Positions 86-20,123 of a DNA stretch of 64,000 bases are shown one piece after another. The position numbers and the translations under genes were made by a program. The first letter of the stretch is position 1. Each line of letters starts with the position of its first letter. Below the pieces are notes generated by a model that was not told where the DNA came from, did not search any database, and was given only the letters and a program-made list of their open reading frames with translations. The stretch is from Arenicellales bacterium (GTDB lineage: Bacteria; Pseudomonadota; Gammaproteobacteria; Arenicellales; JAJDZL01): the NCBI GenBank assembly GCA_965203865.1, contig OZ241916.1, positions 934,884 through 998,883 on the forward strand, given 5' to 3'.

Positions 86-520
86 TCATTCACATTCATG
101 CGCCGGTTGCATAATTCCGAAGTGACTTCCATCAGCGGCCTGAAGAATTGCAATTGTACCAACTTCGGGAACAAACCAAGGCTCCCGAATTATTTGACCA
201 CCTGAATCCACTGTTGAACGGCAAACATCAGAAGCGTCAGCAACTGCGATATAGCAAAACCAGTGATTCGGGGTTCCTGCCGGAGCCGTAGTAAACTGTA
301 AAGGGATCATTCCGGCAACAGGCTTCCCATTAAGTTCAAATACAGTGTAATCACCGCCCTGAGGCATTTTCATCGTACTTGCGTTCCAGCCAAAAACTTT
401 CTTGTAGAAAGAACCGGATGCTTCTACGTCGCTGGTGGCCAATTCGGTCCAGGCAAACATTCCAGGTTGTTGCATTTTTACTACTCCCAAATTTTGATAA
501 TTAAAGATTAATTCTTTCAA
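86..520 (-). CDS. VOC/glyoxalase-bleomycin-resistance family protein
   Basis: 144-aa ORF with VOC-fold-like sequence (FAWTELATSD..FYKKVFGW..HWFCYIAV). The true start may be the internal Met near 475 (MQQPGMF). Confidence 0.65.
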   Translation of the reverse strand: MKELIFNYQNLGVVKMQQPGMFAWTELATSDVEASGSFYKKVFGWNASTMKMPQGGDYTVFELNGKPVAGMIPLQFTTAPAGTPNHWFCYIAVADASDVCRSTVDSGGQIIREPWFVPEVGTIAILQAADGSHFGIMQPAHECE

Positions 521-563: not shown

Positions 564-947
564 CTAACGAATTAGTCGTATCTCTGTGTCCAGGTTAATT
601 TTCTTCCAAATTCGGTCTGTTGTTACAGCCGGAAAATTGTATCGTCTGGAAAGAAATAAGCATGCACGGTCTCCGATAGACATGCCATATTTGATAGTGC
701 TGCCTCGAAGGTCTCCCACACCAAAAGCTTGGTCAGCGTCAAATGAAATGAGTTGCATGTTCAATTTATTTACAAATCCGCGAATTTCAACCGAGTTGTA
801 TCCGTTATCAGCGAGACGTGAACAAACTTCAGCAAGATTCACAGCTGAAATCAGTGCATTGCCTTTGTATTCTTCGACAATTTCACCTCCGGGTTCTTCC
901 TGAAGGTATGCCAGAATTGCTGATGCATCCAAAACAACTTTACTCAT
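564..947 (-). CDS. vapC: PIN-domain toxin (VapC-like ribonuclease)
   Basis: 127 aa. Acidic PIN residues are in the expected order (VLDASA, NLAEV, IGDRAC, TTD). An 8-nt overlap with the upstream AbrB-type ORF is typical of toxin-antitoxin coupling. Confidence 0.8.
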   Translation of the reverse strand: MSKVVLDASAILAYLQEEPGGEIVEEYKGNALISAVNLAEVCSRLADNGYNSVEIRGFVNKLNMQLISFDADQAFGVGDLRGSTIKYGMSIGDRACLFLSRRYNFPAVTTDRIWKKINLDTEIRLIR

Positions 948-1794
948 AATCGAAACTTTCCATTATCCGTTCTTCATTCATGGCTTCCCTACGACGTTCT
1001 GCGATTAGTTCATCTGCCAAACTGACTCCTTCGGGTATGTTGTTTCTTAGCTTTTGGCGTAACTTCTTTAGAAACGTATCGCCGCTCACAATACTTAAAC
1101 TGTCTTCTTCACAATTCAACAGGACATCATCACCTTCTTGAACTCCGAGATGTTTACGAATTTCTGCAGGGATAACTATTCTTCCTGCGGGACCTATGAC
1201 CACCCATGCTCCTTCGGGTATTTTCAGTTTTTGCTGTTCATTTGCCAACTTTTTACTCACAGAAGATTTAAGCTGCGTATCAAGATAGCCTTTCCGGACC
1301 AGAACATTGCGAACATATTGATATCGGATACCCAGAAAGTCTCTTATTTCAGTTCGACTGTAACCTTGCTGATACAACGCCTGAATTTTTTCGGCAGTAG
1401 TAGAACATCCCTCAACTATGCGACCCATTGTTGTTCCTTTATCATCAGAATGCTGGACAGCCAATGAAGAACTGGGCGGTAACTTTTGAAATCGCGGAGT
1501 ATTTGCAGTTTGATTGGAATTGGATGGTCTGACTTCTGCATCTTCATAGCCACTGTGTGTTAATACTTTACAAACACGCTGCTTGGCAGTTTTCAGAAAT
1601 TCAGCTATTTCGCTACGACTATATCCCTTGCAATACAGTGCACGAATTTTGTTTTTTTCACAAACTAAATTGCCAGTAATTTGCTCCATGGCTTTTGTTT
1701 TTTTCGCACTTAGTTGTTTAGGCATTTGTCCGTATAAAATTTCTTGTTGTAAGAGGATGTTTATAATTTTGCCATTAGTTCTATTAATTGTCAA
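940..1794 (-). CDS. AbrB/SpoVT-type antitoxin-like protein with two N-terminal HTH-like repeats
   Basis: The C-terminal segment GRIVIPAEIRKHLGVQEGDDVLL resembles an AbrB/MazE swapped-hairpin. It is preceded by two internal repeats (KIRALYCKGYSRSEIAEFL..VCKVLTHSGY and KIQALYQQGYSRTEIRDFL..VRNVLVRKGY). The start codon is uncertain because several internal Met codons exist. Confidence 0.6.
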   Translation of the reverse strand: MTINRTNGKIINILLQQEILYGQMPKQLSAKKTKAMEQITGNLVCEKNKIRALYCKGYSRSEIAEFLKTAKQRVCKVLTHSGYEDAEVRPSNSNQTANTPRFQKLPPSSSLAVQHSDDKGTTMGRIVEGCSTTAEKIQALYQQGYSRTEIRDFLGIRYQYVRNVLVRKGYLDTQLKSSVSKKLANEQQKLKIPEGAWVVIGPAGRIVIPAEIRKHLGVQEGDDVLLNCEEDSLSIVSGDTFLKKLRQKLRNNIPEGVSLADELIAERRREAMNEERIMESFDYE

Positions 1795-2014
1795 TATTTT
1801 CTTAGTATGTCATATATCTGTATACATTGACTAACAATTTCCAATGGTGAAGCCGCCTGTCAGCCAAGCATGGCATCAGTTTTACTATTAACTTTGAACA
1901 AATTGTTTCCGTGGATATCAAGGAAGTGAATCAAGAATTCCTTCAGAATGGTCAGTAACGCTTTAAAGTTCTCCGTGTGCTATTCTCGTGTCAATCGCCG
2001 AGTAATGGAAAAAA

Positions 2015-3157
2015 CTAAGGAAGGTTGAGTTCTTTGCAAAACGTGTGAAAGGGCAAAACTCTATATCCTTTGACAACATAGTCTCTTGCGCCTAGGTGCA
2101 CTTGGTAGAATTTCGGAATTGCAGTTCGTTCATTGAAGTAATTGATCGCTGGGCTTAAACCTGTCTCACCTGTTTTGCACTCTACTGCGAACAAAGGCTT
2201 GCGGTCTTGCAGTACCACGAAGTCAATTTCCCGCAAATCAGTGTCCCGAATAAATTGAAGTTCCATTCGGTATCCTTCAGTGTCTTCTATATAGTGGCAA
2301 TACTTTAGTAACTGGGAAGCGACCATGTTTTCAAATCTTGGTCCTTCGTCGGGTACTTGCGACCAGTCCCACAAATAAAGTTTCTTCTCCTTTTTCACTG
2401 CCCGAATTCCAGGCGACCCAAATGGCCGAATTCGAAAGCAGACGTATAAATTTTCCAAGATTGCAACCCAGCGTTCGACAGTTTCGTGTGCGACGAGCAA
2501 GTCTTCTCGTAAATTGCGTATTGACAGGGGAGAGCCAACACGTTGTGGCAATGCTTCCAAAAGCAATTCAATTAAATCAACTTGTCTTACGTTTTCAAGG
2601 GTGCGCAAGTCTTCGTAAACAACTCTGGAAATTCGTTCCCGATGCCAGCGCCGCCAAACTCTGGTGTTGTTCGATAGAAGAGGTTCTGGAAAGCCACCAA
2701 ATTTCATCAACAATTCCACATCGGATTTTGTGGGGTGAGGGTTCATCTCGCGAAGTGAGAACGGGTGAAGTCGATAATAATGATATCGCCCCTGCAAAGA
2801 ATCTCCGCCCTTACGGTAATGGTCCAGACGAGCCGAACCTGTAATCAGAAATGAAACTTCATCTCTTCTTGTATCATAGAATCCTTTTACAAGATTTCTC
2901 CAGCGGGAATATTTGTGAATCTCGTCAAGCACGATTAGCCCTTTGTTGCTCGGTAGTATTCCTCTCAGAAGATTAGGGCGTTCAGTTGAGTCATCCCAAT
3001 TGAGGTAAGCTGAATTTCGGTTTGTTGACGGTTGAAGGAATGATAAGCCCAAAGTAGTTTTACCAACTTGCCGAGGTCCGCCAACAAACACCATCTTTCT
3101 TTCCAAGTCTGATTTTACTGGCAAGAAAAGATAGCGGTCTAATAAACTTTTTTTCAT
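2015..3157 (-). CDS. AAA+ ATPase, COG1373/DUF4143-type
   Basis: 380 aa. Walker A GGPRQVGKTT, Walker B-like LIVLDEIH, and a C-terminal segment with a nuclease-fold-like pattern (REIDFVV..AVECK). Confidence 0.75.
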   Translation of the reverse strand: MKKSLLDRYLFLPVKSDLERKMVFVGGPRQVGKTTLGLSFLQPSTNRNSAYLNWDDSTERPNLLRGILPSNKGLIVLDEIHKYSRWRNLVKGFYDTRRDEVSFLITGSARLDHYRKGGDSLQGRYHYYRLHPFSLREMNPHPTKSDVELLMKFGGFPEPLLSNNTRVWRRWHRERISRVVYEDLRTLENVRQVDLIELLLEALPQRVGSPLSIRNLREDLLVAHETVERWVAILENLYVCFRIRPFGSPGIRAVKKEKKLYLWDWSQVPDEGPRFENMVASQLLKYCHYIEDTEGYRMELQFIRDTDLREIDFVVLQDRKPLFAVECKTGETGLSPAINYFNERTAIPKFYQVHLGARDYVVKGYRVLPFHTFCKELNLP

Positions 3158-3289
3158 GAGTAATTTAGCATTAATTCTAAATTACTCATTAGTATAGTCG
3201 ACTTTACACTAAATTATCGACTAATCATTATTTGTATGCTCAGTAAAAATCTTTCTATTTTTACGGAATCTAACACTAATCTGTTTTCA

Positions 3290-3471
3290 GATTTAAACTT
3301 TGTTGAATGGATAAATTCTATTCACTATTGTCAGTGATTGGACCGTTGTTTGAAGTATTCGCTTTAATCCCTTTTTCATCAGGTCAATTCTTCTCACGCA
3401 GCGAATGGCCACAAAGGACGAAATGAAGGTTCTGTCTTAATCCCTTTTTTATCAGGTCAATCCATCTCACG
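3290..3471. repeat. CRISPR-like direct repeat: two good 35-36-nt copies plus one degenerate copy, period 72-73 nt
   Basis: Copy 1 at 3362-3397 (ctttaatccctttttcatcaggtcaattcttctcac) matches copy 2 at 3435-3470 (tcttaatcccttttttatcaggtcaatccatctcac) at 31/36 positions, with a ~37-nt unique spacer between them. A third copy at about 3290-3325 matches 21/36. The reverse complement reads GTGAGAAG...GGGATTAAAG, which resembles known CRISPR repeat termini. No cas genes are present in the window. Confidence 0.45.
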
Positions 3472-3569
3472 ACTCATTGCAACAGATATGCGATCATTCC
3501 AGCACCACTTGAGCGGCTTGCTGTGATGATTTAATACTTCGGATATGCTCATTTGATTTGATATTTGTT

Positions 3570-4205
3570 TTAATAATCAAATTCAAGTAGCAAATCGGAA
3601 TCGCCTTCTCTTGCTTTACCCCAATTCACTTCACCTGTCTTTACAAGATTCCTTAAAACCTTTGCCGCTTCGGACGGGACAAGCGGGTTCTTCATGTAGT
3701 TGAAAGAAACCTTGTGAAACAATCGGAATGCCTGTTTCTTATCCAATCCAAGTATTTGTCTGGCGTATCGATAAACGTCCATCGTGATTACCTTGCTAAT
3801 ATCATAGTCCAAGGCTACAGCGTGTCCAGCAATATCTGCTGGTCTTCCATCGTCGAACTTGTATTTGCTTTGATTGAATTCTTCATTTGGCAGGCTATCA
3901 AAACGGTCAGCAAGTTCAAGGAGTTTTTCAAAATTAACCAGCCATGCTCCCCCAATGTAAAGCGTAGAAACTTCAGGGTCAAAGGGATGCCTTGTTGACC
4001 ATGCCAATTCAGCAGCACTATGTTCCTTGCGACCTGCATCAGCAACTTGGTACCGAGTTGGCATCCATTTATGCTCGTCATACCAATTTACCCGAATTTG
4101 CGAATCATAGCGGTTAAAATCCGCCCTTATCTTGAAATCGCATAAGTCGTCGTTTTTAAATACCATGCGACAATGCACTGTTTTACTTCCGTCTTTCATT
4201 TTCAA
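3570..4205 (-). CDS. hypothetical protein (no recognisable family)
   Basis: 211-aa ORF lying 60 nt downstream of, and co-directional with, the exonuclease-BRCT gene. I recognise no motifs. Confidence 0.5.
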   Translation of the reverse strand: MKMKDGSKTVHCRMVFKNDDLCDFKIRADFNRYDSQIRVNWYDEHKWMPTRYQVADAGRKEHSAAELAWSTRHPFDPEVSTLYIGGAWLVNFEKLLELADRFDSLPNEEFNQSKYKFDDGRPADIAGHAVALDYDISKVITMDVYRYARQILGLDKKQAFRLFHKVSFNYMKNPLVPSEAAKVLRNLVKTGEVNWGKAREGDSDLLLEFDY

Positions 4206-4265
4206 ATCTTCCTTTAATTACTATTGTTCAAGTAACTTCTATTCCTGATTATTCATGCCATTCGA

Positions 4266-5231
4266 CTATTTTGCTACGCTTTGTGGCATGGAGGTTATAG
4301 CGTTGGTAGCACTCATAAGCTCAAAGAAGTCTGTTTCTGAAATTATCCGAATATCGAACCCTGTTCCAATCAATTCTTCCGCTTTTCTGTGTTTTGAACT
4401 CTTATCGTAGCCTTCTTTCAAGAATGCTTTATTCTGAATACCGGCGACTAGTATGGTAGTTTTACGAGTTACAGATTCGACAACCTTGCAACCCGCTTTG
4501 TCGGCAATATCCGCCGCTTTGTAGCGCGGGATGGTAAGGACTCCTGTAAATACCATTATCTCCCCGTACAAGTCGCCTTCAATATTTCCTTCGCGTTTTA
4601 TGTAATGCTTTGTGTGCTTTATAGGCTTTGTACGCTTATGCTTGCTAGGGAATATAGGTTGCTCTACGCGTATTAGCCAGTCATCAATATCCATTCGACT
4701 GGAATCGCATGCTTGCAAGACAACCTCAGCGGCGGCTCGGGCATCCTCCAATGCATCGTGATGCTTGAATTTTATGCCCAAGTCATACGCTATATTCTTG
4801 AGTCCGTATCCAGAATGACCGTAATCTTCGGGCCATGCTCGTCTTGCAATCTTCGCACTATCAAGCCATTTGACCTGCAACTGTTCGAGATTGTAACGAC
4901 TCATGCATCGTTCAAACGCAACCCTGTCGAATGATGTATGACTGACTAAAACCGAACCACGCAGTCTTTTACGCAACTCGTCCCGCAACTCTGGCATGGT
5001 TGGACTTTCCTTAACATGCTTTTCCTTTATTCCGTGTATTGATACATTCAAAGGGTCAAACCAGCACTCCGGATTAACGAGAGTTTGCCACGGGTCCTTG
5101 ATTTCACCGTTTTCAACCTTCACTATTCCAATCTGGCAGATGCTTGCACGGTCAGCGTTAGCGGTTTCAACATCTATCGCATTGAAAGTTCTATTCATTT
5201 TCAAATCCCCTTGACTACTTCCCTGATTCAC
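4266..5231 (-). CDS. DEDDh 3'-5' exonuclease (DnaQ-like) fused to a C-terminal BRCT-like domain
   Basis: Exo I AIDVETA and Exo III HHDALEDA motifs. The C-terminal part (VFTGVL..KAGCKV..TTILVAG) is BRCT-like. The likely start is an internal Met (MNRTFNAIDVET). Confidence 0.7.
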   Translation of the reverse strand: MNQGSSQGDLKMNRTFNAIDVETANADRASICQIGIVKVENGEIKDPWQTLVNPECWFDPLNVSIHGIKEKHVKESPTMPELRDELRKRLRGSVLVSHTSFDRVAFERCMSRYNLEQLQVKWLDSAKIARRAWPEDYGHSGYGLKNIAYDLGIKFKHHDALEDARAAAEVVLQACDSSRMDIDDWLIRVEQPIFPSKHKRTKPIKHTKHYIKREGNIEGDLYGEIMVFTGVLTIPRYKAADIADKAGCKVVESVTRKTTILVAGIQNKAFLKEGYDKSSKHRKAEELIGTGFDIRIISETDFFELMSATNAITSMPQSVAK

Positions 5232-5447
5232 ATACGAGCTGAACGAACATCACTTCGCCAGCATTCTTGCAGAACTGGCACTTATACCACTTTGAAGTAT
5301 AAGCGTTTTAATAAAACCTTATCAAAGTAAGTTGGATAGATTGAACTTGCGGAATGTGAGGCACCTCGCACCACGAGACAAGAATAGTTTTTTCACGAAT
5401 TGAAATAGGGTGGATTGGAAATATCGATCAAAACATGGAATTGAATT

Positions 5448-6350
5448 CTAATCATTAGCTGCTCTGGGAGATGAAGCAGGTTGAGCTAGAGTATCAATTA
5501 TTGCAGCACCCATTATCAGTACTACTCCAATTCCATGCGTCCAACCGAAAGGCTCCCCGGATAAGGTAGCTGCAGATACGACTCCAAAAATAATTTCAGA
5601 CATGAGCAAAATTCCTACTCGCGTCGGACTCAGTTTCTGATTAGCCCAAAACAGCAAAAACATTGAAGGAAAATATGCGATGACAAAAACTACTAGCCAT
5701 CCTTTACCCGCCAGAATTGAATCAAAGCTGGGTGCGTGGCCAAACGCTTCAATCGGAAGCAGTATAAAAACAGCAGATGCGATTACCGCACCTATATAGA
5801 ATGCTCCGACTTGCTCCCAAACTTTTGCTTTTACATCCCTGCGAATTCTCACTGAAGCATATGCCCAAAACATGCCGGATAGCAGGGCAATCCAGTCTCC
5901 CAAGTTTGATGGACGCGGAATACCGTTGTCAATCCCCAGAATCACTGCTAATCCCGCAAGCCCTAGAACTATCGCTACCACTCTAAATCTTGTAATTGTT
6001 TCCCGAAGCAGGAGTTTTCCAAGAAGGGCAGTCCACACTGGCATCAAGTAGAATAGCAGGACGACTTTGACAACTTCTGTTAGCCCAACTCCAGAGGCGT
6101 AGAAAATCACAGCAACCCCGGAAAATATTCCGGTAACTATGATTTCTCCTGGCATGCGTTGCGTGCGAATCCATTGAATCAAGAATGCAAAGGAAAAGAA
6201 TATTCCTACTACTCCAAGTGTCAAAAAATTCGCCCATATTGGAGAAACACCGATTTCATCCAACTCGCGTATTGGAATCCAGTACAAGCCCCATAAAGCA
6301 CCGCAGGCGACTACAGATATGCTGGGGAGCAAAGTGCGTTCGGAGCTCAA
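5448..6350 (-). CDS. EamA/DMT-family transporter
   Basis: 300 aa with about 10 hydrophobic segments arranged as two EamA-like halves. Confidence 0.8.
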   Translation of the reverse strand: MSSERTLLPSISVVACGALWGLYWIPIRELDEIGVSPIWANFLTLGVVGIFFSFAFLIQWIRTQRMPGEIIVTGIFSGVAVIFYASGVGLTEVVKVVLLFYLMPVWTALLGKLLLRETITRFRVVAIVLGLAGLAVILGIDNGIPRPSNLGDWIALLSGMFWAYASVRIRRDVKAKVWEQVGAFYIGAVIASAVFILLPIEAFGHAPSFDSILAGKGWLVVFVIAYFPSMFLLFWANQKLSPTRVGILLMSEIIFGVVSAATLSGEPFGWTHGIGVVLIMGAAIIDTLAQPASSPRAAND

Positions 6351-6484
6351 GTCGCTATAGTAAATGTGTTGGCCAAAACTATGGCCATGTTTACCAACTG
6401 TAGAGATTGGTGGATAGGTGAATCAATCTCGGAAATATCACTCAGGTTCTCTTGAAAAATCTAAATATTGCAACTTGCCCAAAA

Positions 6485-9400
6485 TTAGTTTACAGGTGCA
6501 AACAATTCTGAAATGTAGTTGTATCCTTCAATGGAATCGAAAAATAAAATGTGCTTTTCGGAAAACTTCTGAATATTCCACTCTTGATAGCCAAGCTTTT
6601 GTTGCATGGTTGAATAAGGAGTCACTGAGATGATAAACGAATCTAAAAAGATATTTTCCAAATTGGTGCGAGCACTGATTGTTTTCGATAATCTAGGCAG
6701 TATTTCGTGCAATCTTGCTTTGTCATTGTTTTCGTAAGGTTCTTCATGCATCATGCCGTGTACTTCAACGAAAACAATTCTTTGACTTCTAGAGTCTTTA
6801 ACCCATAAAATAAAATCAGGATAGAAGCCGCGTTTGTCGAAAAAACTTATACCTTCTCCATGACTCAGGTTGCGTGAAACAAATATTTCCTTGCCTGCCA
6901 AAGAGTTGTCTTTTTCAGATTGCCAGAATTGCCGTAAATCATCCACGAATTTTCGTTCGCTTTCATTCAGAGATGGTGGCGTACTTTGAATGTCGTCATC
7001 CGAAGCAACAAGCAACGGTTGATAAAGGAGGCGGTCGAAATGTATGATGCGCAGTTGTCGTTCTTTCCAAAAATTCATCTCGCCATTTTCTTCAATGAGT
7101 TTTTGGATTTCAGTGATGCGTCCCGTTTCTGCCGGGGTGACCTGCACCGTATAGTCTTGAAAAATTGAATCGTCTTCACTGAGTTGTTGATATGTCATTT
7201 GACTTGATTCCCACTTTTCTTTTCGCACTCGAAAATACTTGTCAATGTATTTTTTAAGAATCGTAACAATAGTTTCATGAAGTACTTTTTGGGTATCGGC
7301 AAATGATTTCGGGTTGGTCACTAGTTCGTCAGCAAATAAATGGTAAATATTCTCACTTTCGGGACGCTCCAATATTTTTCTTGGTGTATCCGAGAATATG
7401 GCAATGTTCGTATATCCTTTTACTTGCTTGTACTGAAGAAGCTCAAGATAGATTCTTTCCCAGTCGACAAGGTCTAGCATATCGGAAGAAATGTATCTTT
7501 TTTGTCCTGCAACCGCCTCCGAAGATATGAGCTTGTTGCCGCTACTTTTCAATGCCTGAATTTTGTAAGACAAGTCTACCCGAATGAAAGAATTCTTTTT
7601 GGGTTTCAGTAGAAAGGATTTTTCGTCAAGAAAGTTGCTGGTTTCTGGTAAGCGAGGCAGCACTAACCCTCTATCTAAAAATTCTTTATTTGGTTTAATT
7701 CTAAGTGGCATTTCGACCTTGTACGTTGTATCTATCCCTTCGTCTTCCAGAAATTTCCGAAACTTCATCATGTAATTTGCCCGTAGCGAAAAAATATTTA
7801 ATGTTTCCAGATAACCAATGTTCTGCGGATGACTCCCGCTAAGTGCTGCGCTTCTTTTCAGACTGAAATCCATTCCTCTGAGCCGCACTCCACGCCCGAA
7901 CAGCTGGATAATTCCCGAACCTGCTTTAAGACCGATATTCAGCAACCCCATATTGGAAACACGCCACGAATTCCAGCCTTCCATAAACTTCTTGGCTCCG
8001 ACCAGTACATCAATCGTAGTGTCGGGATTGTTTACGCTGTCGAACAAGGAACCGGCGATTACGTCTTCCTCCAGGACAATTCCGGAACTATCGTCTTGAA
8101 CCAGATTTCTGAACCGACCTGTGTCTCCGATATATATGAGTCCAAAATAGTCGTCAGCACCGCTTGCTTTCAGACCAATTTCACCCGCGTTACCCCGAAT
8201 ACTGCACAAGTGAAGACTACCGCCACCAGGAGCGTGAAATACCTTGGCAAGAATATCCTCGTACAATTTTTCTGGAGATAAGCCATTAACTCGAAGAAAT
8301 TCGAATTTACCATCAAAAGCATCTTTTCCCTCGGGTGTCTTTAATCCTGAATTGCCTTGAATGAGATTATCGACCCACTCCAGTACCCAACCATGTTTAT
8401 TTTGCAACACATGATGCAGAAACCGTGCAACAGTCAAGACATCACTCCGTTTCTCCTTTTGGTCAATATAAACTGCATTTACTGTGCTGCCGACAAATAC
8501 CCACAATGGCTTGTCTATACTGTACGGACGAAACAGTTCGATATTCTCCTCGTATATTTTGAGTTGTTCGTAAAAGGAAAGCAGATTGCCGAGCAGTAAC
8601 ATCTCCGTGTTCTGGACTGTTGTCTCATCCTTCATGTTCAGAATATGGAAATCCTTGCCAAATCCGTCGCGATGGAAATAGCGGTATGAATAGTCGAACA
8701 GTATCGATTTTCCATACTCTTCAGTAAGTTGCTCGTTCTTCGCTGCTGTAAGGGCCTGCCCGAATGTTGCGCTGTACTCGAAAGTAAACCCCATTCCGCC
8801 CAGAGAGTCGCGAAAGCTTCGCCAGGTTTCGCCGCCTGAGCCTTTGTGCCCCTCGTCGACAAAGATCAAGTTGTTGCCCTCGAAAGCCTCTACAGGTACG
8901 CTTGCTCCACCGCCTCTTTTCTCTTCGACAAGCTTGGTAATTTCGATCACTTGGACCGTGTTCTTGCTGTCCGAAAATAGTCCGCGCCCGTCCAGGCCAA
9001 AACTACAGCATGGAATATTTGACAAGGAAAAGTCGTTCAAATGCTGCTCGCTCAATCCTTCATTTGGCGTAATGAGAATAATGTTGTCAAGCGGCATATT
9101 GCAGTAGTGGAGAAATTGTCGATAATTGATGTGCATGATAAGGGTCTTGCCACTACCTGTAGCCATCCAGTAGGCTAGCTTGTTCAAGTCATCTTCTGTA
9201 AAAACTGTACTGATATGCTGATAAACCCGGCTAGTGGCATTCAAGTTTGCTACAAATTTGTTTAATGCCTGTCGCAGTTCTCCGCGTTGGTTAAAGTATT
9301 TGTCCAGATAAACTTCTGTGTACAGGACGGATAGATGCTGAAAATATCGTAGTGTAATTGGTTCGAATCGATTTGTATTCATCAAGCGTACATGGTCGCG

Positions 9401-9655
9401 AATGTTGTTGTCGTAGCGCGACAGGTCATATTGCGAAATGCTTACCTTGTCTCCCCGGGATAGTAATAAATGGTAAAGGTAGCTGTGGATGCCATCCGGT
9501 GAATTGAAACCTTCTTTGATTTTCTTTGCGTCAGCCAACAATTCGCGATTCTGCTCATATCCAAACAAACTATGCATCCAACCAAGCAGAAGCAGACGCT
9601 GTTCAAGTCTGACGTGGTTTTTGCTTCCAGACCGAAATTTCTTCTGAACCGCCAT
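6485..9655 (-). CDS. SF2 helicase (type III restriction Res-like) with a C-terminal PD-(D/E)xK-like segment
   Basis: 1056 aa. Motif I MATGSGKT, motif II VDEGHKG, motif III YSATF. The C-terminal FYPDFILWV..IVFVEVHG is nuclease-like. The ATG at 9655-9653 directly follows the TAA of the upstream ORF. Confidence 0.75.
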   Translation of the reverse strand: MAVQKKFRSGSKNHVRLEQRLLLLGWMHSLFGYEQNRELLADAKKIKEGFNSPDGIHSYLYHLLLSRGDKVSISQYDLSRYDNNIRDHVRLMNTNRFEPITLRYFQHLSVLYTEVYLDKYFNQRGELRQALNKFVANLNATSRVYQHISTVFTEDDLNKLAYWMATGSGKTLIMHINYRQFLHYCNMPLDNIILITPNEGLSEQHLNDFSLSNIPCCSFGLDGRGLFSDSKNTVQVIEITKLVEEKRGGGASVPVEAFEGNNLIFVDEGHKGSGGETWRSFRDSLGGMGFTFEYSATFGQALTAAKNEQLTEEYGKSILFDYSYRYFHRDGFGKDFHILNMKDETTVQNTEMLLLGNLLSFYEQLKIYEENIELFRPYSIDKPLWVFVGSTVNAVYIDQKEKRSDVLTVARFLHHVLQNKHGWVLEWVDNLIQGNSGLKTPEGKDAFDGKFEFLRVNGLSPEKLYEDILAKVFHAPGGGSLHLCSIRGNAGEIGLKASGADDYFGLIYIGDTGRFRNLVQDDSSGIVLEEDVIAGSLFDSVNNPDTTIDVLVGAKKFMEGWNSWRVSNMGLLNIGLKAGSGIIQLFGRGVRLRGMDFSLKRSAALSGSHPQNIGYLETLNIFSLRANYMMKFRKFLEDEGIDTTYKVEMPLRIKPNKEFLDRGLVLPRLPETSNFLDEKSFLLKPKKNSFIRVDLSYKIQALKSSGNKLISSEAVAGQKRYISSDMLDLVDWERIYLELLQYKQVKGYTNIAIFSDTPRKILERPESENIYHLFADELVTNPKSFADTQKVLHETIVTILKKYIDKYFRVRKEKWESSQMTYQQLSEDDSIFQDYTVQVTPAETGRITEIQKLIEENGEMNFWKERQLRIIHFDRLLYQPLLVASDDDIQSTPPSLNESERKFVDDLRQFWQSEKDNSLAGKEIFVSRNLSHGEGISFFDKRGFYPDFILWVKDSRSQRIVFVEVHGMMHEEPYENNDKARLHEILPRLSKTISARTNLENIFLDSFIISVTPYSTMQQKLGYQEWNIQKFSEKHILFFDSIEGYNYISELFAPVN

Positions 9656-9862
9656 TTATTCATCTGCAACCGATGCAAGCATTTTTGACTTGAAAGAAGG
9701 TTCTAGTGCTTTTGGCAAATCCTCGTTAATGTATTTTTCAACTACATCGCGTTTGTAGTTCAATATTCGGTAGATTCCGAAATCCAAATCAGCACTATCG
9801 AATTGGAATAGTTCCAATAGCAGTTTCTGAAACTTTTGAAAGTTTTTGTTTGAATTCGACAT
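9656..9862 (-). CDS. 68-aa ORF in the same frame as, and directly abutting, the helicase ORF
   Basis: The minus strand reads ..GCA GAT GAA TAA ATG GCG.. (TAA at 9658-9656, ATG at 9655-9653). The ORF contains FQFDSADLDFGIYRILNYKR. It could be a separate small protein or a detached N-terminus. Confidence 0.4.
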   Translation of the reverse strand: MSNSNKNFQKFQKLLLELFQFDSADLDFGIYRILNYKRDVVEKYINEDLPKALEPSFKSKMLASVADE

Positions 9863-10115
9863 GATGCTGTTTGTAAGCCAAGTAAAGTAAATCTCTAATT
9901 CTGATTAATCTTTAGGATTTGCTGGCAACGAGTGCTGTGGCAATGATTGGAAAATTTACTCTGGATTTCAGATTCATTCCATAGAACTTGCAATAAAGAA
10001 CGGGTAGACTGCAATAAATCTCTTGTACTCGCGAATTAATCCCACCAAGCGGGAAGCCAGTAAAAAATTTTCCAGTGAACAGGAGAATTATATAGTAGCT
10101 TCAGAGTGAATAATC

Positions 10116-10144
10116 AAAAAAAGAGGGGTCAATTTTGACCCCTC
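10116..10144 (-). terminator. Rho-independent terminator of the substrate-binding protein gene
   Basis: On the minus strand: gaggggtca-aaat-tgacccctc followed by T7. It starts 29 nt after the stop at 10173. Confidence 0.75.
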
Positions 10145-10172: not shown

Positions 10173-11816
10173 TTAACCTTTCAAAGCCAGTTGGTTTCCG
10201 AAAATGTAGCTGGTTGGGTGATGCCGAAATCCGACAACCTTGTCGCTCCAGGCAGAATAAACGGAACGCCATATCGGTTGCGTGATTGGACCGTCTTCCT
10301 GCATAATCATTTCCAGTTGCTTGATCAAGTCGCGGCGCTTTTCAATATCAAGCGTTCCTTCTGCCTGAGTCAAGATTCTGTCAAACTCCGGGTTTGCATA
10401 GTGCGACTCGTTCCAAGGCACGCCAGTCCGATAAGCCAAGCCCAGGACCATGAACCCAAGTGGACGATGTGTCCAGGAAGTGAACCCGAATGGAACCTTG
10501 TCCCAGACATCCCAGAAGTCCGCGGAAGGTAGCAGGTTTATGTCAACTCGGATATTTGCCTCCTTCCATTGTTCAACCATGGCTTGAACTGCTGCCAACT
10601 CCCATGGGGGGTCGCCCTTGCATGCAATTTCCACATCAACCCCGTCTGCCATTCCGGCTTCTGCCAGTAATTTCTTGGCCATCTCAGGGTCGCGTTGCAT
10701 TACAGGAAGTTCAGCATAGTCGGGATGAACTGGACTTACATGATGATGCTCGCCTGGTGCACCGGAATTTCGATGTGCCAGTTCCAAACACCGCGCCGGG
10801 TCTACGGCTATCCGAAAAGCTTTTCGTACTCTTGGGTCAGTGAACGGAGCTTGGTCGACCTGACCGCGGGCTACGCCAGTTTTTGCTGTAACAGCCTCGT
10901 ATACACCTACACCATTCATACCGCGATATACATCAAGTTGGGCAATAGTACCTTCGTATGAACCTTGAACCTGACCAGAAGAAATGGCCGCCAGCGTTGC
11001 AGAGGGGTCGTCACCAAGGTCAATGAACTCAATTCGGTCAACAAAAGGCCCATCTCCATAGTAGTTGTCTCTTCTGGCAAGAACTGCTTTTTCGTTCTGG
11101 ATGTACTCAACCAATTCGAAAGCACCTTGTCCATTTGAGCCCACTCCAAACTTCCCGCCTTCCTCTGGGTCGAGCATCGGGAAAGGATAATGGAACAAAT
11201 GTTCAGGTATCGCAATTTGCGGGACTTTTATATTCAACCGTAAGGTTTTTCCGTCAACGACTTCAATAGCATTGGCATCCCACAGGTTCTTGCCTTCGTC
11301 ATCCATCATGTAGCCTTTCATCAAGCCAAGAACGGAAGAACCGGTGTTCGGGTCAAGAACCCGGTTAATATTCCATGCCACATCTTCAGCGACAAAATCG
11401 CGGCCGTTGTGCCACTTCAAGTCTTTGCGAATTCGCAAAGACCAAGTCATGAGGTCATCACTGGCTTCCCAACCTTCCAGCAGAGCCGGATGCGTAACAT
11501 TGTCATGGTTGGTGAATGTTAAATACTCTACAACCTGACGAGTAATGTTTGAGTCATACACCCACTGGAAAATGTGCGGATCTTCAATTGTGGGGCAACG
11601 CATGGATATGCGCAGGGTTCCACCCATTGGCATATCTTGTGCGCGCGCTTCAGGAATTAGTGAAACTCCTGTTATATCGCCAGCAAATTTATATGCTGCT
11701 GCAGCAGACAATCCCAACAAAGTTGAATATCGCAGAAATTCACGACGAGTGATTTTCCCCTCCGCTAATTCTTCCTTTAGTTTGGGTATATGTCTGTGTT
11801 CTTTATTTTCAGACAT
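10173..11816 (-). CDS. ABC transporter substrate-binding protein, peptide/nickel family 5, Tat-type signal
   Basis: 547 aa. N-terminal TRREFLRYSTLLGLSAAAAY is a twin-arginine-like leader. The body resembles family-5 SBPs. No cognate permease or ATPase lies adjacent. Confidence 0.8.
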   Translation of the reverse strand: MSENKEHRHIPKLKEELAEGKITRREFLRYSTLLGLSAAAAYKFAGDITGVSLIPEARAQDMPMGGTLRISMRCPTIEDPHIFQWVYDSNITRQVVEYLTFTNHDNVTHPALLEGWEASDDLMTWSLRIRKDLKWHNGRDFVAEDVAWNINRVLDPNTGSSVLGLMKGYMMDDEGKNLWDANAIEVVDGKTLRLNIKVPQIAIPEHLFHYPFPMLDPEEGGKFGVGSNGQGAFELVEYIQNEKAVLARRDNYYGDGPFVDRIEFIDLGDDPSATLAAISSGQVQGSYEGTIAQLDVYRGMNGVGVYEAVTAKTGVARGQVDQAPFTDPRVRKAFRIAVDPARCLELAHRNSGAPGEHHHVSPVHPDYAELPVMQRDPEMAKKLLAEAGMADGVDVEIACKGDPPWELAAVQAMVEQWKEANIRVDINLLPSADFWDVWDKVPFGFTSWTHRPLGFMVLGLAYRTGVPWNESHYANPEFDRILTQAEGTLDIEKRRDLIKQLEMIMQEDGPITQPIWRSVYSAWSDKVVGFRHHPTSYIFGNQLALKG

Positions 11817-11963: not shown

Positions 11964-12599
11964 TTATCTCTCAATCACATGATTTCTAAAACCATGACTC
12001 TTCTTGCAGCCCTTGGTTGAAATATTTGCGAAAGGGAGCGCACAATTTGCAATTCGACTGTTTCTGTCAATATGAGCGGAAGCATTTTCCATGAATTTTG
12101 CCAGTACTCTGTATTTGATATTTGTGGTAATTTCGTTGTGATTTGAAGCATCTGCGTAATGTATGTACAAGTTATCGAGATTAGAGAGTAGTTGTATCCA
12201 ATGCCCGCCGCTGTGAGGAGATGAGTACCCTATTTGGTGGCCGTGTAAATTTTGGATTCTCTGCTTGATTGAACCGCTTTCACCAATATAGAGTATGTTT
12301 TCATTTGGCAACCAAAATTCGTTTAAACGAGTTACAAGCTCGCCTGATGATTTTGGATGATGCCCATCAATTTTCAGATCTGGTACACGTTCCAACCATT
12401 CAATTACTGAATTTCGGCAGATCGGAGCTACTGATTTCAAACCATCATTTGAATTTGGGTACCTTGAAAGAGAAATAAAGTAAATACCACGGTAAGTATC
12501 CCGGGAGTTTGATAACCAGTTTTCAATATCAACCCACTGGAAAACTCCTTTGTGTTCCAAATCGACAGATTCAAGTAGTTCGGATACAGTTAGTGGCAT
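11964..12599 (-). CDS. hypothetical protein, possible divergent GIY-YIG-like nuclease
   Basis: 211 aa. GIYFISL, then ILYIGESGSIKQRIQNLHGH, resembles GIY..YIG..R..H, but the two elements are about 70 aa apart, which is atypical. Confidence 0.35.
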   Translation of the reverse strand: MPLTVSELLESVDLEHKGVFQWVDIENWLSNSRDTYRGIYFISLSRYPNSNDGLKSVAPICRNSVIEWLERVPDLKIDGHHPKSSGELVTRLNEFWLPNENILYIGESGSIKQRIQNLHGHQIGYSSPHSGGHWIQLLSNLDNLYIHYADASNHNEITTNIKYRVLAKFMENASAHIDRNSRIANCALPFANISTKGCKKSHGFRNHVIER

Positions 12600-12618: not shown

Positions 12619-13416
12619 CTAATGTTGTAAAACCTGGCTCAGAAACAACTGGGTTCTTTCATTCTGCGGATTGTCAAAAAAGTCGTCTGGATTATTCTCT
12701 TCAATAATCTCACCTTCATCCATAAAGATCACACGATTTGCCACCGTTTTCGCAAACCCCATTTCGTGCGTAACAACCAGCATCGTCATGCCGCTTTGCG
12801 CCAGTTCAATCATCACGTCCAGTACTTCTTTGATCATTTCCGGGTCAAGGGCTGAAGTGGGTTCGTCAAACAGCATGATCTTCGGATTCATGCACAAGCT
12901 GCGCGCAATCGCCACGCGTTGTTGCTGACCGCCTGACAACTGGCCCGGGTATTTTTTTGCTTGGTCTGGAATTCGAACCCGCTCAAGATACTTCATTGCA
13001 ATTTCCTCGGCTTCTTCCTTTGGCTTCTTTCTCACCCAAATCGGTGCAAGCGTACAGTTTTCCAGTACCGTAAGGTGAGGGAACAGGTTGAAGTGCTGAA
13101 ACACCATCCCGACTTCCCGCCTGATTTCTGCAATATTCTTCAGATTGCCGGACAGAGTGATTCCATCAACGACAATTTCGCCTTTCTGGTGCTCCTCCAG
13201 CCGGTTGATACACCGAATTAATGTCGATTTCCCCGACCCGGAAGGACCGCAAACGACAATGCGTTCCTGAGTTTCTACGGTCAGGTGAATATCTTTCAAG
13301 GCATGGAATTCGCCGAACCACTTGTGCATTGCCCGAATTTCTATCGCGGGCATTTGCCCCGACAATGTATTTTCGCTTGATTCAGTAAGCTGTGTTTGAC
13401 TTGCGTTTTCGTTCAT
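12619..13416 (-). CDS. aapP: amino-acid ABC transporter ATP-binding protein
   Basis: Walker [10 protein letters not shown], signature [13 protein letters not shown], Walker [13 protein letters not shown]. Confidence 0.85.
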
Positions 13417-13436
13417 ATCGAGTATTTCATGGGTTG

Positions 13437-14558
13437 TTATTTGCGATATCCTGTATCCAGTTTTCTTTCAAGATACAGTGAATAGCGCGACATTGCAAAG
13501 CAGGAAATGAAAAATCCGACTGCAATAAAGAGATAGAGTTCGGTAGACAGGCCCTGCCAGGCAGAATCAGCAAGAACTGCGCGGCTGATTCCAAGCGGAT
13601 CCAGCAGACCAACCACAACAACAAGAGTAGTGTCTTTATACAGGCCGATAAACGTGTTTACAATTCCCGGAATGGAAATCTTCAGTGCCTGAGGCAGAAT
13701 AATCAGTCTCATTGACTTCCGGTAGTTCAGTCCAAGTGCATCGGCCGCTTCAAATTGTCCTTTCGGTATTGCGGCAAATCCTCCACGCACTACTTCGGCG
13801 ATATAAGCGGAAGAAAAAATGATGACCATTACCATGACCCGGACCAGCAAATCAATGTAAGTGCCGGGAGGCATGAAATAGTTCAACAGAGTTGATGCAA
13901 CAAATAGCAGAGTAATGAGCGGGACACCGCGAATAAATTCAATGTAGATAATGCTCAGGGTGCGTACAAGAGGCATATTTGACCGCCGTCCCAAAGACAG
14001 CAGGATTCCGATGGGCAATGATATGACAATGCCAGTTACACCGATAACAACTGTGAGCATGAAGCCTCCGAACTTGGGAGATTCCACTGGCTCGAATCCT
14101 AGTCCTCCCCAAAGAAGAAAGTAAGCAATGAACGGGTAGGCGATTGAAAACCATATTAGTTTTTTGCGTATTGGTATTTGGTCGTACAGCACGGGTACCA
14201 GCGCAACCAGCATAAGTACGAAAGCGAGGTTCACGCGCCATCTCAAGTGTTCGGGATAAAACCCGTACATAAACTGCTCGAATCGAATTGATACAACGGC
14301 CCAGCAGGCACCGCTCCCCAGTTCGCGGCATTCGTTGCGATGACCGGCATCGAAAACCGCGTCCAGATAGGCCCAACTGAAAATTGGCGGGATGATTTTG
14401 TACAGAAAATAAACGGCGACAATCGTAAGTACGATATTTGTAGTGCTGGAAAACAGGTTTGTTTTAATCCAGCCCAGTACACCTGTTGTTGTAACCGGCG
14501 GGGGCAGGTCCGGATGAGTTCCAGGTTCGTAGTTTTTCGGAAAGTCGATTTGTGCCAT
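13437..14558 (-). CDS. aapM: amino-acid ABC transporter permease
   Basis: Multi-TM permease with an EAA-like loop ([24 protein letters not shown]). The start is set at the internal Met (MAQIDF), which removes the overlap with aapQ. Confidence 0.8.
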
Positions 14559-14569
14559 GACTGCTAAAT

Positions 14570-15811
14570 TTATCTCTCGACCAAGGCGATACGTCGGTTG
14601 TACCAATTCATGATGGCAGATATTCCAAGCGATATTGCCAAGTACAGCGCCAGTACTATTGACATGCATTCCAGAGCTCTTCCGGTCTGATTCAGCGAAA
14701 TCCCTCCTATTGTTGCAACAATGTCCATGTATCCAACAGCGATTGCCAGGGATGAGTTTTTGGTCAGGTTCAAATACTGGCTAATCAACGGAGGAACAAT
14801 AACCCGAAGTGCTTGCGGGAGGATAATCAGTCGCATTGTCCAGTTGGGCTTGATTCCGAGTGCGTATGCGGCTTCTGTTTGGCCGTGGCTGACTGCAAGA
14901 ATGCCTGAGCGCACAATTTCGGCAATAAAGGCGCCTGTATAGACTCCCAATGCAAATGTGAGCGCTACAAATTCAGGTGAAAGCACCAATCCACCATTGA
15001 AGTTGAATCCCTTGAAGACTGGCATCTCCAGGTTCACTGGCGAGCCGGCAAGAAAATACACTATGACCGGGACAATCACAATAATCGCTGTGTTGATTGT
15101 CAGTACCGGATAGGCTTGTCCAGTTTGCTCCTGCCTTTTTTGGGCAAGCCTTGCGAAAATCACTGCGCCTGCAATGGACGCAACGACAGCTGCCGTAACC
15201 CACCAGAATGCTGGCTCGAATAATGGCTTTGGCACGTAGAAGCCCCGATTGGACAAATAAATTCCATCTACGAGGGATATTGAATTCTTTGGGTGGGGCA
15301 GACTGTGAATGATCACACCATGCCAAAGGAGTATCCATAAAAGCACTGGAACGTTGCGACTGAATTCAACGAATACATAGAAAATTCGATTAATCAGCCA
15401 GTTGGAAGACAGGCGCAGGACACCAGCGATAAAGCCGATGACGGTGGCAAGAAAGATACCGCAAATTGCCACCAGTGCCGTATTCAGTATTCCAACAACT
15501 GTTGCGCGAAGATGGGTGCTTCTGGAGGAATACTCGATAAGAGACTGGTTGATGTCATAGCTGGACGGCGTAAACAGAAAGCCGTAGCCGGCTTCTCGTC
15601 CGAGCAGCTCAAGGTTGGCCAGTGTATTTCGGATAAAGTAGCCAAACAGAGACAGAACGACAATCAGTACGAAAATCTGGATGATAACCTGCCTGGATTT
15701 TTCGTTTGTCCAGACATCTGCCAACCTGAATGTTGACTTGGGTGGGGAAACAGCAAGGTGTTGCACGAAGGAAAATCCTTGCGATGCCAAAATGCGTGGA
15801 GTAAATGACAA
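14570..15811 (-). CDS. aapQ: amino-acid ABC transporter permease
   Basis: 413-aa permease with [24 protein letters not shown]. Confidence 0.8.
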   Translation of the reverse strand: MSFTPRILASQGFSFVQHLAVSPPKSTFRLADVWTNEKSRQVIIQIFVLIVVLSLFGYFIRNTLANLELLGREAGYGFLFTPSSYDINQSLIEYSSRSTHLRATVVGILNTALVAICGIFLATVIGFIAGVLRLSSNWLINRIFYVFVEFSRNVPVLLWILLWHGVIIHSLPHPKNSISLVDGIYLSNRGFYVPKPLFEPAFWWVTAAVVASIAGAVIFARLAQKRQEQTGQAYPVLTINTAIIVIVPVIVYFLAGSPVNLEMPVFKGFNFNGGLVLSPEFVALTFALGVYTGAFIAEIVRSGILAVSHGQTEAAYALGIKPNWTMRLIILPQALRVIVPPLISQYLNLTKNSSLAIAVGYMDIVATIGGISLNQTGRALECMSIVLALYLAISLGISAIMNWYNRRIALVER

Positions 15812-15847
15812 CGTGCGCGAATATCGCGCACGCTGTCAAATTACCGA

Positions 15848-16873: not shown

Positions 16874-17099
16874 AGTTCTACCTCCAAGTAGAATAAACGT
16901 TTACAATAACGAGTATGAAAATAGTATTGTCAATTTTGGTGTTGATTTATCTGTATGACGGATAAAACAACTCCTGACTGACTGGATAGAAAAGTTACTA
17001 TAACTTAATCCTTCATCGAAATAAAAATATTTTTGTTGTTTTTGAATGATTGAAATTTGAAAAAATTTAATTGTCCGGCATTAATTGTAACAATTGATA

Positions 17100-18427: not shown

Positions 18428-18487
18428 AATTAATACTAAATCCGCTATCGTCTTCATGTGCCGGGCAGCAGGGTGTAAGCCATCTGA

Positions 18488-19462: not shown

Positions 19463-19485
19463 TTTTTGGCTAGCAATCCGAATTA

Positions 19486-19866
19486 CTAATTTATCTCTGA
19501 AACAAAGTCATCGTAGGATTCCTGGTTCATTAAACTTCCCAGTTCAGATGAATCCTTAATTTTCAGCTTGAGGAACCAGCCGGCTTCTGTCGGACTTGCG
19601 TTCACCAGTTCAGGAGAGAATTTCAGTTCTTCATTGATATCAACGACTGTCCCGGATAAAGGTGCTTTTACTTCCGCGGCGGTTTTGACTGATTCAACCA
19701 CTGCTATTTTGTCGTCTACTGTCAATGCTGTGTCAATCTTTGGCAGTTCGACAAAAACAATATCGCCGAGCTCACTTTGCGCATGGTCTGAAATGCCGAC
19801 TATGACAACATCGTCACTCCCAATTTTTATCCAGGCATGGTCCTCTGTGTAGCGTAGTTCAGTCAT
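19486..19866 (-). CDS. gcvH: glycine cleavage system H protein
   Basis: 126 aa with the lipoyl-lysine motif [10 protein letters not shown]. Confidence 0.92.
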
Positions 19867-20123
19867 CGTGGATTTATTTCCAATCGTTGTGGTTGTCCGA
19901 CTTCATGTTTTCGCGGGAATTTTGCATTGCAGGTTTCATTAATGGTATCAGTTTACTGTCCGGTGCAATATGCAATCTGAACAGGCATCAGTCTCTCAAA
20001 CCAATCAGCAGGAATTATACAGTGAAGCATGAAAGTTCTGGGTAGTGTTAAAATTTGAATAATTTCTTGGAAAGCAAAAACAAGAAATTCAAAATAAAGA
20101 GTAGCAATTTGCAAGGTGTAGAG

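Follow-up and report, generated by a model that had tools for sequence, protein, structure and literature searches.

A window of 64,000 nucleotides (64 kb, the whole stretch of DNA that was analysed) from an Arenicellales bacterium carries, close to its left end, a 9.3-kb block of defence-type genes. Only 563 bases of the window lie to the left of this block, and they hold a glyoxalase/VOC-family gene at 86-520. ORF and domain searches recovered, in place and all on the minus strand, every element that a preliminary description of this DNA had listed: a VapC toxin with an atypical antitoxin, an AAA ATPase, a CRISPR-like repeat, a DEDD exonuclease-BRCT gene, an unknown ORF, a helicase-nuclease and an EamA transporter (Table 1). 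The G+C content of the block is 42%, compared with 48% elsewhere in the window. The block is a genuine accessory island of defence-type genes that varies between strains, and its parts are of known or catalogued kinds.

Table 1. Features of the block and of its right-hand flank (positions in the window).
Feature	Position	Strand	Basis
VapC-type PIN-domain toxin, 127 aa	564..947	-	Pfam PIN 2.7e-9
Antitoxin ORF, AbrB/MazE/SpoVT domain at aa 198-234	940..1794	-	Pfam MazE_antitoxin 1.3e-6, HTH_7; NCBIfam AbrB 1.9e-10
AAA_14 ATPase + DUF4143 (PD-(D/E)xK-like)	2015..3157	-	Pfam AAA_14 5.8e-27, DUF4143 4e-25; PADLOC PDC-S01 1.6e-48
Decayed CRISPR mini-array, 2 x 37-nt repeats and one 36-nt spacer	3361..3470	-	Direct repeat and repeat-family matches
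Near-orphan ORF, 209-211 aa	3570..4205	-	No Pfam, PADLOC or NCBIfam match
DEDDh 3'-5' exonuclease + C-terminal BRCT	4266..5231	-	Pfam RNase_T 1.4e-19, BRCT 3.4e-4
EamA-family transporter	5448..6350	-	Pfam EamA 3e-28
Insertion of ~3.6 kb (upstream region, mod stub and res only)	6463..10067		blastn of sister contigs L117/L118 against the window
Type III restriction subunit Res, intact, 1056 aa	6485..9655	-	PADLOC REase_III 4.7e-138; Pfam ResIII, SWI2_SNF2
mod remnant, 68 codons	9656..9862	-	PADLOC MTase_III, matching positions 4-46 of 1057
Intrinsic terminator of SBP_bac_5 gene	10123..10144	-	Insertion point just downstream; terminator kept in L117

The two leftmost genes of the block look, from their sequences, like an intact VapBC-type module whose antitoxin is unusual. 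The toxin has the acidic residues expected of a VapBC PIN domain (D7, E40, D93 and D111), and the antitoxin ORF lies adjacent and upstream, overlapping the toxin start by 8 nt. In the translation of the antitoxin, two tandem helix-turn-helix (HTH) repeats, at about aa 45-87 and 133-175, precede the AbrB domain; in plasmid-borne homologues the match is confined to the AbrB part. There is a promoter-like site at 1794-1766, and because the TTG at 1794 coincides with its -35-like TTGACA, the true start of the antitoxin is probably the ATG at 1722, which gives a protein of 260 aa. The PIN RNase toxin would presumably be neutralised by this AbrB antitoxin with its two extra HTH repeats, and the module auto-repressed by it.

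The next gene encodes an AAA_14-DUF4143 protein that is also conserved in the sister contig L117. The motifs that are characteristic of both parts are present (Walker A GPRQVGKT, Walker B VLDE and a C-terminal D..ECK), and the protein belongs to the already catalogued PADLOC candidate family PDC-S01. This family is common, and its experimental validation is pending (PMC12988326); a literature search on DUF4143 in connection with defence returned nothing relevant. The gene is best regarded as a candidate defence gene, a putative intact single-gene ATPase-nuclease. We also considered a link between AAA_14 genes and type III Mod-Res pairs, and rejected it. In the related locus L032 an AAA_14 gene does stand beside an intact Mod-Res pair, but its product is only 28% identical to that of the window, and therefore no conserved linkage is seen.

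The CRISPR-like remnant named in the preliminary description proved to be genuine. It was detected as a direct repeat (3351-3398 and 3424-3471) for which zero matches are expected by chance, and it resolves into repeat 1 at 3470-3434 (GTGAGATGGATTGACCTGATAAAAAAGGGATTAAGAC), a spacer at 3433-3398 and repeat 2 at 3397-3361. Two repeats within the 23-50 nt range around a spacer of similar length constitute the smallest possible array, but the repeats are not near-identical: repeat 2 matches repeat 1 at 32 of 37 positions, and its 3' handle is mutated to AAAGC. We found the repeat core in 81 metagenome contigs, where it builds bona fide arrays, with as many as 78 copies and a period near 70 nt, and arrays of this family are flanked by genes for Cas1, Csm3, Cmr6, Csx1 and a CARF nuclease, that is, they lie beside type III cas genes. 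The sister contigs L117 and L118 retain a single degenerate copy of the repeat. PADLOC reported no Cas match in the block, and tblastn with 79 array-neighbour proteins and the Cas6 of the closest species (L015) identified no cas homologue in the whole window. The spacer matches nothing in the window or in any compared related locus, and therefore has no self-target or regulatory target there; the repeat RNA shows no significant secondary structure. The array, from a type III-associated repeat family, has probably shrunk to two repeats and one spacer; the 64-kb window holds no cas gene, and the array is predicted to be inactive unless another part of the genome supplies Cas6 and effector proteins.

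The ORF that follows is nearly an orphan and has no assignable function. Searches among 5.8 billion proteins returned only three matches to it, while its C-terminal half is matched by 128 representatives. This half corresponds to a helical domain (aa 89-196) whose family, so far uncharacterised, consists of stand-alone proteins of ~110-130 aa, including some encoded by phages; one homologue is located in a phage contig with terminase genes. In the AlphaFold2 model, pLDDT exceeds 90 only for aa 85-200, and the N-terminal part is poorly modelled. No significant fold match was found in PDB or BFVD, and no profile match among PDB sequences or in Pfam. The possibility that this ORF is a divergent Cas6 was rejected, as it bears no similarity to the Cas6 of L015.

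The neighboring exonuclease gene probably starts at 5198 and encodes 310 aa. NCBIfam PRK06195 aligns to the protein over its full length, with a score (178 bits) below the equivalog cut-off of 373 bits. It is also matched by phrog_192 (1.3e-44), by the Cas-associated DEDDh model of PADLOC, and by PADLOC PDC-S48, for which the best stretch covers positions 1-190 of 411 (the DEDD domain) and a second stretch is matched as well. More than 7000 homologues exist at about 65-70% identity, and full-length homologues are encoded within prophage lysogeny modules.

According to the preliminary description, the uncharacterised members of the block are candidate components of undescribed immunity modules. 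In its most specific forms this would mean a two-gene system of the exonuclease and the near-orphan ORF, or a CRISPR-linked module that additionally includes the repeat and the DUF4143 ATPase. These four elements do stay together in the sister contigs, and sister strains have the exonuclease and the ORF in common. The matches of the exonuclease to the DEDD part of PDC-S48 and to the Cas-associated model point in the same direction, as do the location of its full-length homologues in the lysogeny and cargo regions of prophages, a frequent place for defence genes, and the presence of the C-terminal domain family of the ORF in phages. However, the ORF essentially lacks full-length homologues, and the exonuclease gene is elsewhere followed by unrelated 77-aa ORFs, with ordinary genes or toxin-antitoxin pairs as neighbors. 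Comparison of homologue neighborhoods revealed no conserved linkage among the genes of the block outside the host species. None of the 81 contigs with this repeat family (394 kb) encodes a homologue of the exonuclease, the ORF, the AAA_14 protein, the PIN toxin or the AbrB antitoxin, and the best PDC-S48 match is limited to the N-terminal half of the profile. We therefore consider a hidden module unlikely. We found no evidence for a new multi-gene immune system in the block, and the members in question turn out to be a type III Res with a gutted mod (6485-9862), a PDC-S01 gene (2015-3157) and the near-orphan ORF (3570-4205); the block reveals no new immune mechanism.

A narrower proposal, that the DEDDh-BRCT protein acts alone or with a variable downstream ORF as a single-gene defence against phages or mobile elements, is also improbable. 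In such a case the 3'-5' exonuclease would be anchored through its BRCT domain to the DNA ends or the replication proteins of the invader. The very large family, the partial PDC-S48 match and the temperate-phage members located beside integrase, repressor and toxin genes would fit this proposal; literature searches on PDC-S48 and on BRCT-exonuclease defence returned nothing relevant.

The right-hand part of the block is a strain-specific insertion. The near-identical metagenome contigs L117 and L118, which are 93-96% identical to the window at the nucleotide level, are homologous to it down to position 10068, where homology stops, and it resumes at ~6438-6462; ~31 bp take the place of the insertion. 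L117 and L118, like L114, stem from sponge and sediment metagenomes. The inserted segment has a G+C content of 0.417 and contains no integrase, transposase or obvious target-site duplication. The cassette is absent from both sister contigs and from the closest species, L015. The preliminary description had read 6485-9862 as one large helicase-nuclease gene. There is indeed an ORF of 1056 aa in this region, but there are two ORFs, and they are a known type III Res (6485-9655) and a mod stub (9656-9862).

The Res has full-length homologues of 1040-1090 aa at 98-100% coverage, and at all the invariant columns of a 23-sequence alignment it has the conserved residue, ATGSGKT (165-171), VDEGH (266-270) and PDFILW (946-951) being among them, so that both the SF2 helicase/ATPase motifs and the endonuclease motif of a type III Res are present. 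Its profile found no match among PDB sequences. The partner gene is in a different state: the first ~51 codons of mod are joined in frame to the last ~15, and the ~943 codons between them, methyltransferase domain included, are deleted. Compared with the intact 1012-aa Mod of L032, aa 7-54 of the stub correspond to Mod 4-51 (79% identity), and LEPSFKSKMLA corresponds to Mod 997-1007; the DNA alignment covers both ends of mod. The L032 protein carries its methyltransferase core at aa 516-798 and is homologous to the type III Mod structures 6k0w and 4zcf (EcoP15I). With only Mod ~4-51 and ~997-1007 left, the stub has neither the N6/N4 methyltransferase domain nor the target-recognition region of a type III Mod. 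The order mod-then-res is preserved, with the TAA of the stub directly abutting the ATG of res, as in the intact Mod-Res pair of L032.

A type III Res is unable to act without Mod. Because Mod finds the DNA site and Res needs Mod, the intact Res is predicted from these gene structures to be expressed but idle, and the type III system to be dead. It probably entered recently as a minimal cassette between the SBP gene (encoding an ABC-transporter substrate-binding protein) and the core EamA gene, and mod then lost ~943 codons in frame. Had the system been dead for long, some decay of Res would be expected, and there is none; mod may have been truncated very recently, or Res may have kept a use. 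Likewise, selection and not chance could be behind an in-frame deletion that spares the stop-start junction. The sequence probably comes from a metagenome-assembled genome (MAG), so that the loss within mod could be a variant in the population or a misassembly.

Two alternatives bear on the predicted loss of function. In the first, Res still works, either with a Mod encoded elsewhere or as a helicase-nuclease that needs no Mod, and the stub persists because it couples translation or serves as a small partner. The complete set of invariant Res residues, the in-frame deletion with its retained TAA-ATG junction, and the N-terminal motif FQFDSA(D/E)LDFGIYRI(L/M)NYKRD, which is conserved in the L032 Mod and has a related form in the more distant L102 Mod, all speak for this possibility. 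On the other hand, no other Mod homologue is present within the 64-kb window, an in-frame outcome is expected by chance in one of three cases, and the stub retains none of the catalytic and DNA-recognition regions, while site recognition resides in Mod in the characterised type III enzymes (review PMC12707154). A working Res is thus very unlikely. The second alternative, equally improbable, is that the deletion is an artefact of assembly or of the population, and that the organism carries an intact, working type III restriction-modification (R-M) system at this locus. The probable MAG source, the perfectly intact Res and the fact that a 100%-identical Res protein is known from one contig only would be in line with an artefact, and the related genomes used for comparison are all MAGs. 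The junction, however, is clean and in frame, both ends of mod are as diverged from the mod of the relative as res is (about 70-80%), and there is no long repeat at the junction that could cause a collapse.

The island lies 3' of the terminator of the SBP gene. EamA is a core gene and does not belong to the accessory cargo, as it directly adjoins the SBP gene in L015 (66% aa identity) and in L117 and L118. The closest species carries a Cas6 gene at the same position, together with a mini-array and a CBASS-like NucC/TRIP13 pair; in L029 the position is taken by a type IIG-like R-M gene and in L002 by a transposase. The site is thus an insertion hotspot, as relatives hold other defence genes or mobile elements there. 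The comparison of synteny that the preliminary description had called for shows a variable region rich in defence-type genes, and not a conserved, syntenic core region. That the block is core sequence in which these genes co-localise by coincidence could appeal to the core status of EamA and to the very widespread, strongly conserved DEDD-BRCT family. But the block is missing beside the SBP orthologue in all 31 related loci, the sister contigs lack the 3.6-kb segment (the mod stub and res with it), other cargo occupies the same site in relatives, and the G+C content lies 6 points below that of the rest of the window, which leaves this explanation with virtually no probability. The locus has the features of a defence island, namely a variable stretch between conserved genes, enrichment in defence-type genes and different cargo in relatives; its left end lies at the edge of the window.

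In our opinion, the island is likely to be a defence-type mosaic at a site of recurrent insertion, with independent parts of differing ages, of which the type III R-M system and the CRISPR array are broken remnants. The locus would then illustrate island turnover in an uncultured marine lineage, where one intergenic site took up, depending on the relative, a type III R-M system, a type IIG-like enzyme, a transposase, or Cas6 and CBASS genes. With mod removed cleanly and res still perfect, the R-M system seems to have been caught in the middle of its decay, and the CRISPR array, going from two repeats to one, may be a second system caught decaying. There is also a warning for annotation: pipelines would score res as part of an R-M system even though its partner is a 68-codon stub, and would miss an array of two repeats.

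Comparison with known systems places each part of the island. In common with R-M systems of the EcoP15I/EcoPI type, the cassette has mod followed by res with abutting stop and start codons, and a Res with SF2 helicase motifs and a C-terminal PD-(D/E)xK-like motif; the difference is a Mod of 68 codons that has no methyltransferase or recognition domain. The subfamily in question combines a long Mod (about 1000 aa) with a long Res (about 1050 aa), corresponding to PADLOC MTase_III and REase_III, both longer than in EcoP15I, and the long-Res family is too divergent for a sequence match to solved structures. The mini-array resembles type III-associated arrays with unstructured 36-37-nt repeats ending in ...ATTAAGAC, with which it shares the core TGACCTGAT.AA.AAGG.ATTAAGAC. 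Its 73-nt period, its orientation along the neighboring genes and its degenerate terminal repeat are also those of type III-associated or degenerate arrays. In contrast to them, it has only two repeats, which are 86% identical, and no nearby cas genes. The similarity between its copies extends about 10 nt beyond the canonical repeat end, and the sister strains have one copy.

The exonuclease has the same DEDDh-then-BRCT architecture and length (about 300 aa) as PRK06195, the PHROG 192 'DNA polymerase exonuclease subunit' and the N-terminal domain of PDC-S48, and its temperate-phage homologues are 33-42% identical over more than 93% of the length. It differs in scoring below the equivalog cut-off, in a best PDC-S48 match that covers half of the profile and in having a downstream partner ORF that varies by genome. 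The AAA_14-DUF4143 protein has the identical two-domain architecture of PDC-S01 and matches the full-length model, with no structural difference. Finally, the toxin-antitoxin pair agrees with VapBC type II modules in its four-acidic PIN toxin, in the overlapping upstream AbrB antitoxin gene and in the promoter-like site upstream; it differs in the size of the antitoxin, which is about 260 aa where about 80 are usual, because two tandem resolvase-like HTH repeats stand before the AbrB domain.

An ORF listing together with Pfam, PADLOC and NCBIfam scans recovered every element that the preliminary description had named in the 9.3-kb block, each in its place and on the minus strand. The G+C content of the block is 42%, versus 48% in the remainder of the window. 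Calling this block a defence island is justified in so far as it is a variable hotspot enriched in defence genes: by tblastn with all block proteins, none of 31 fetched related loci carries the block, and a synteny comparison showed that the region varies among relatives.

Features of the block and its flanks (window coordinates)
Feature	Position	Strand	Remark
Glyoxalase/VOC-family gene	86-520		left flank
PIN/VapC	564-947	minus	
AbrB/MazE-domain ORF	940-1794	minus	
AAA_14+DUF4143	2015-3157	minus	
Direct repeat	3351-3471		two copies
Repeat 2	3397-3361	minus	5 mismatches, including the 3' handle
Spacer	3433-3398	minus	36 nt
Repeat 1	3470-3434	minus	GTGAGATGGATTGACCTGATAAAAAAGGGATTAAGAC
Orphan ORF	3570-4205	minus	no family match (Pfam, PADLOC, NCBIfam)
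DEDD exonuclease + BRCT domain	4266-5231	minus	
EamA	5448-6350	minus	
ResIII helicase ORF	6485-9655	minus	1056 aa
68-aa ORF	9656-9862	minus	adjoins the ResIII helicase ORF
Strong terminator of SBP_bac_5 gene	10123-10144		
SBP_bac_5 gene	10173-11816		right flank

The substrate-binding protein (SBP) encoded to the right of the block has orthologues 80-92% identical in about 20 Arenicellales MAGs, and in most relatives an opposite-strand ABC operon lies within ~350 bp after the SBP gene. In the closest species (locus L015, SBP 92% identical) an EamA homologue directly follows it, and downstream of EamA we found a solitary Cas6 (PADLOC 3.4e-71; 13174-14238), a two-repeat mini-array (17477-17592) and a CBASS-like NucC/TRIP13 pair (19341-20688). 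Recognisable effector genes are absent beside this Cas6 and mini-array (region 12896-17600); ORFs of 337, 108 and 389 aa between them have no Pfam or PADLOC match. In two other Arenicellales MAGs the SBP gene is directly followed by a type IIG-like restriction-modification ORF with HSDR_N_2, N6_Mtase and Eco57I domains (L029, 11884-15403) or by DUF6788 and a DDE transposase (L002, 11785-17063), which suggests a recurrent insertion point at the terminator of the orthologous gene. The sister metagenome contigs L117 and L118, very close relatives with 93-96% nucleotide identity to the window, share with it the order SBP, EamA, DEDD-BRCT, orphan ORF (209 aa) and AAA_14, and lack window positions ~6463-10067. 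EamA is therefore a core gene and the res segment a strain-specific insertion of ~3.6 kb, within which no mobility gene was found. The DEDD-to-AAA_14 segment is specific to the lineage of this window, and the whole region is an insertion hotspot.

Outside the block, a 211-aa ORF (11964-12599) with no Pfam or PHROG match lies between the ABC ATPase and SBP_bac_5 genes; it is kept in L117 and L118, and the corresponding gap in other relatives ranges from 150 bp to ~8 kb. Between the lipoyl synthase and SBP_bac_3 genes, a strain-specific 1.33-kb insertion (17100-18428, G+C 0.518), missing from L117, carries a TnpB gene (ORF 17105-18085) with OrfB_IS605 and Cas12f-like TNB domains.

The large helicase-nuclease (6485-9862), described at first as uncharacterised, proved to be a type III restriction subunit (Res) next to a gutted methyltransferase gene (mod). 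In the PADLOC scan the 1056-aa protein matches the model for type III restriction enzymes (4.7e-138); homologues of 1040-1090 aa cover 98-100% of it, and it keeps all invariant columns of a 23-sequence alignment, including Walker A ATGSGKT, VDEGH and the C-terminal PDFILW. The 68-aa ORF matches positions 4-46 of the 1057-position PADLOC type III methyltransferase model. Elsewhere in the chromosome of the L015 genome, a Res homologue (70% identical) directly follows a 1012-aa N6_N4_Mtase gene, whose product shows homology to type III Mod proteins of solved structure (6k0w, 1.3e-50; EcoP15I 4zcf, 2.1e-27) and has its methyltransferase core at aa 516-798. Residues 7-54 of the 68-aa ORF align with aa 4-51 of this Mod at 79% identity and its end, LEPSFKSKMLA, with aa 997-1007; since both ends align with Mod termini, the ORF is a mod gene that has lost ~943 codons in frame. 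The DNA alignment of the mod 3' end continues straight into res, and the TAA-ATG junction is kept. No further Mod homologue was found in the 64-kb window. Because the site is recognised by Mod in type III enzymes (PMC12707154) and mod is gutted, the predicted state is an inactive system in which Res has not yet decayed.

The CRISPR-like remnant was rightly recognised as such: it consists of two repeats and a spacer, and the repeats belong to a family that forms arrays beside type III cas genes. Arrays built on the core pattern of the repeat were found in 81 metagenome contigs, where they have a period of ~70 nt and reach 78 copies, and proteins encoded next to 15 such arrays match Cas1, Csm3, Cmr6, Csx1 and CARF nucleases, which makes the family type III-associated. 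The repeat RNA shows no significant structure, no cas homologue was found in the window and no spacer target in the window or fetched loci, and L117 and L118 hold a single, more degenerate copy, the 73-bp difference being one repeat-spacer unit; these observations point to an orphan, decaying array. In both the window (3351-3471) and L015 (17477-17592) similarity between the copies exceeds the canonical 37-nt repeat by ~10 nt at its end; the extended units measure 48 and 46 nt, so that the spacer start resembles the trailer start. One array-bearing contig (L102, 1032-8952) also encodes Mod, a 404-aa ORF between mod and res, and a Res 39% identical to that of the window.

No homologue of AAA_14, DEDD-BRCT, the orphan ORF, PIN or AbrB is encoded on the 81 contigs that carry arrays of this family (394 kb), and the AAA_14 protein found next to the intact Mod-Res pair of the relative shares only 28% identity with that of the window; thus there is no sign that the block genes make one system. 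The ATPase itself, its Walker A/B and D..ECK motifs intact, gives a full-length match to PADLOC PDC-S01 (1.6e-48). It belongs to an already catalogued phage-defence candidate, reported to be among the commonest of such systems and unvalidated (PMC12988326), rather than to an undescribed module. The PIN protein has all four acidic residues, and its partner is indeed an atypical antitoxin, with two tandem HTH repeats ahead of the AbrB domain; plasmid homologues match the AbrB part only. Translation probably starts at ATG 1722, since TTG 1794 forms the -35 box in a promoter-like site. The segment coding for the AbrB domain is bracketed by a 30-nt imperfect direct repeat (1026-1055 and 1209-1238), whose copies encode ...KIPEGA... 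and ...NIPEGV....

The DEDD-BRCT protein has >7000 homologues (~65-70% identity) and matches phrog_192. Full-length relatives are encoded by temperate phages: in Streptococcus phage IPP43 the gene sits between those for integrase and repressor, and in Moraxella phage Mcat9 it lies near attR. In three other genomes the neighbours are ordinary or toxin-antitoxin genes, and the downstream ORF encodes a 77-aa protein, unrelated to the window's and conserved in two of the three. In loci L119 (9035-9268) and L121 (8964-9197) this ORF is 88% identical in unrelated contexts, suggesting that the two genes form a small mobile unit. The most novel of the remaining readings, that the DEDDh-BRCT exonuclease is an as yet unvalidated defence gene, appears improbable. 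The orphan ORF has just two weak matches besides itself among 5.8 billion proteins. Of the 128 representatives from an exhaustive HMMER search, almost all align to aa 89-196 alone; these C-terminal matches are stand-alone proteins of ~110-130 aa, one in a phage contig. The AlphaFold2 model is confident for this helical domain alone, which has no fold match in PDB or BFVD. With no assignable function, the ORF did not bear out its proposed role as an immunity component.

The proposal of undescribed immunity modules thus gives way to a type III Res with a gutted mod, a catalogued ATPase, a decaying orphan CRISPR and an unassignable ORF, and the block is an ordinary yet instructive example of a variable defence-enriched hotspot.
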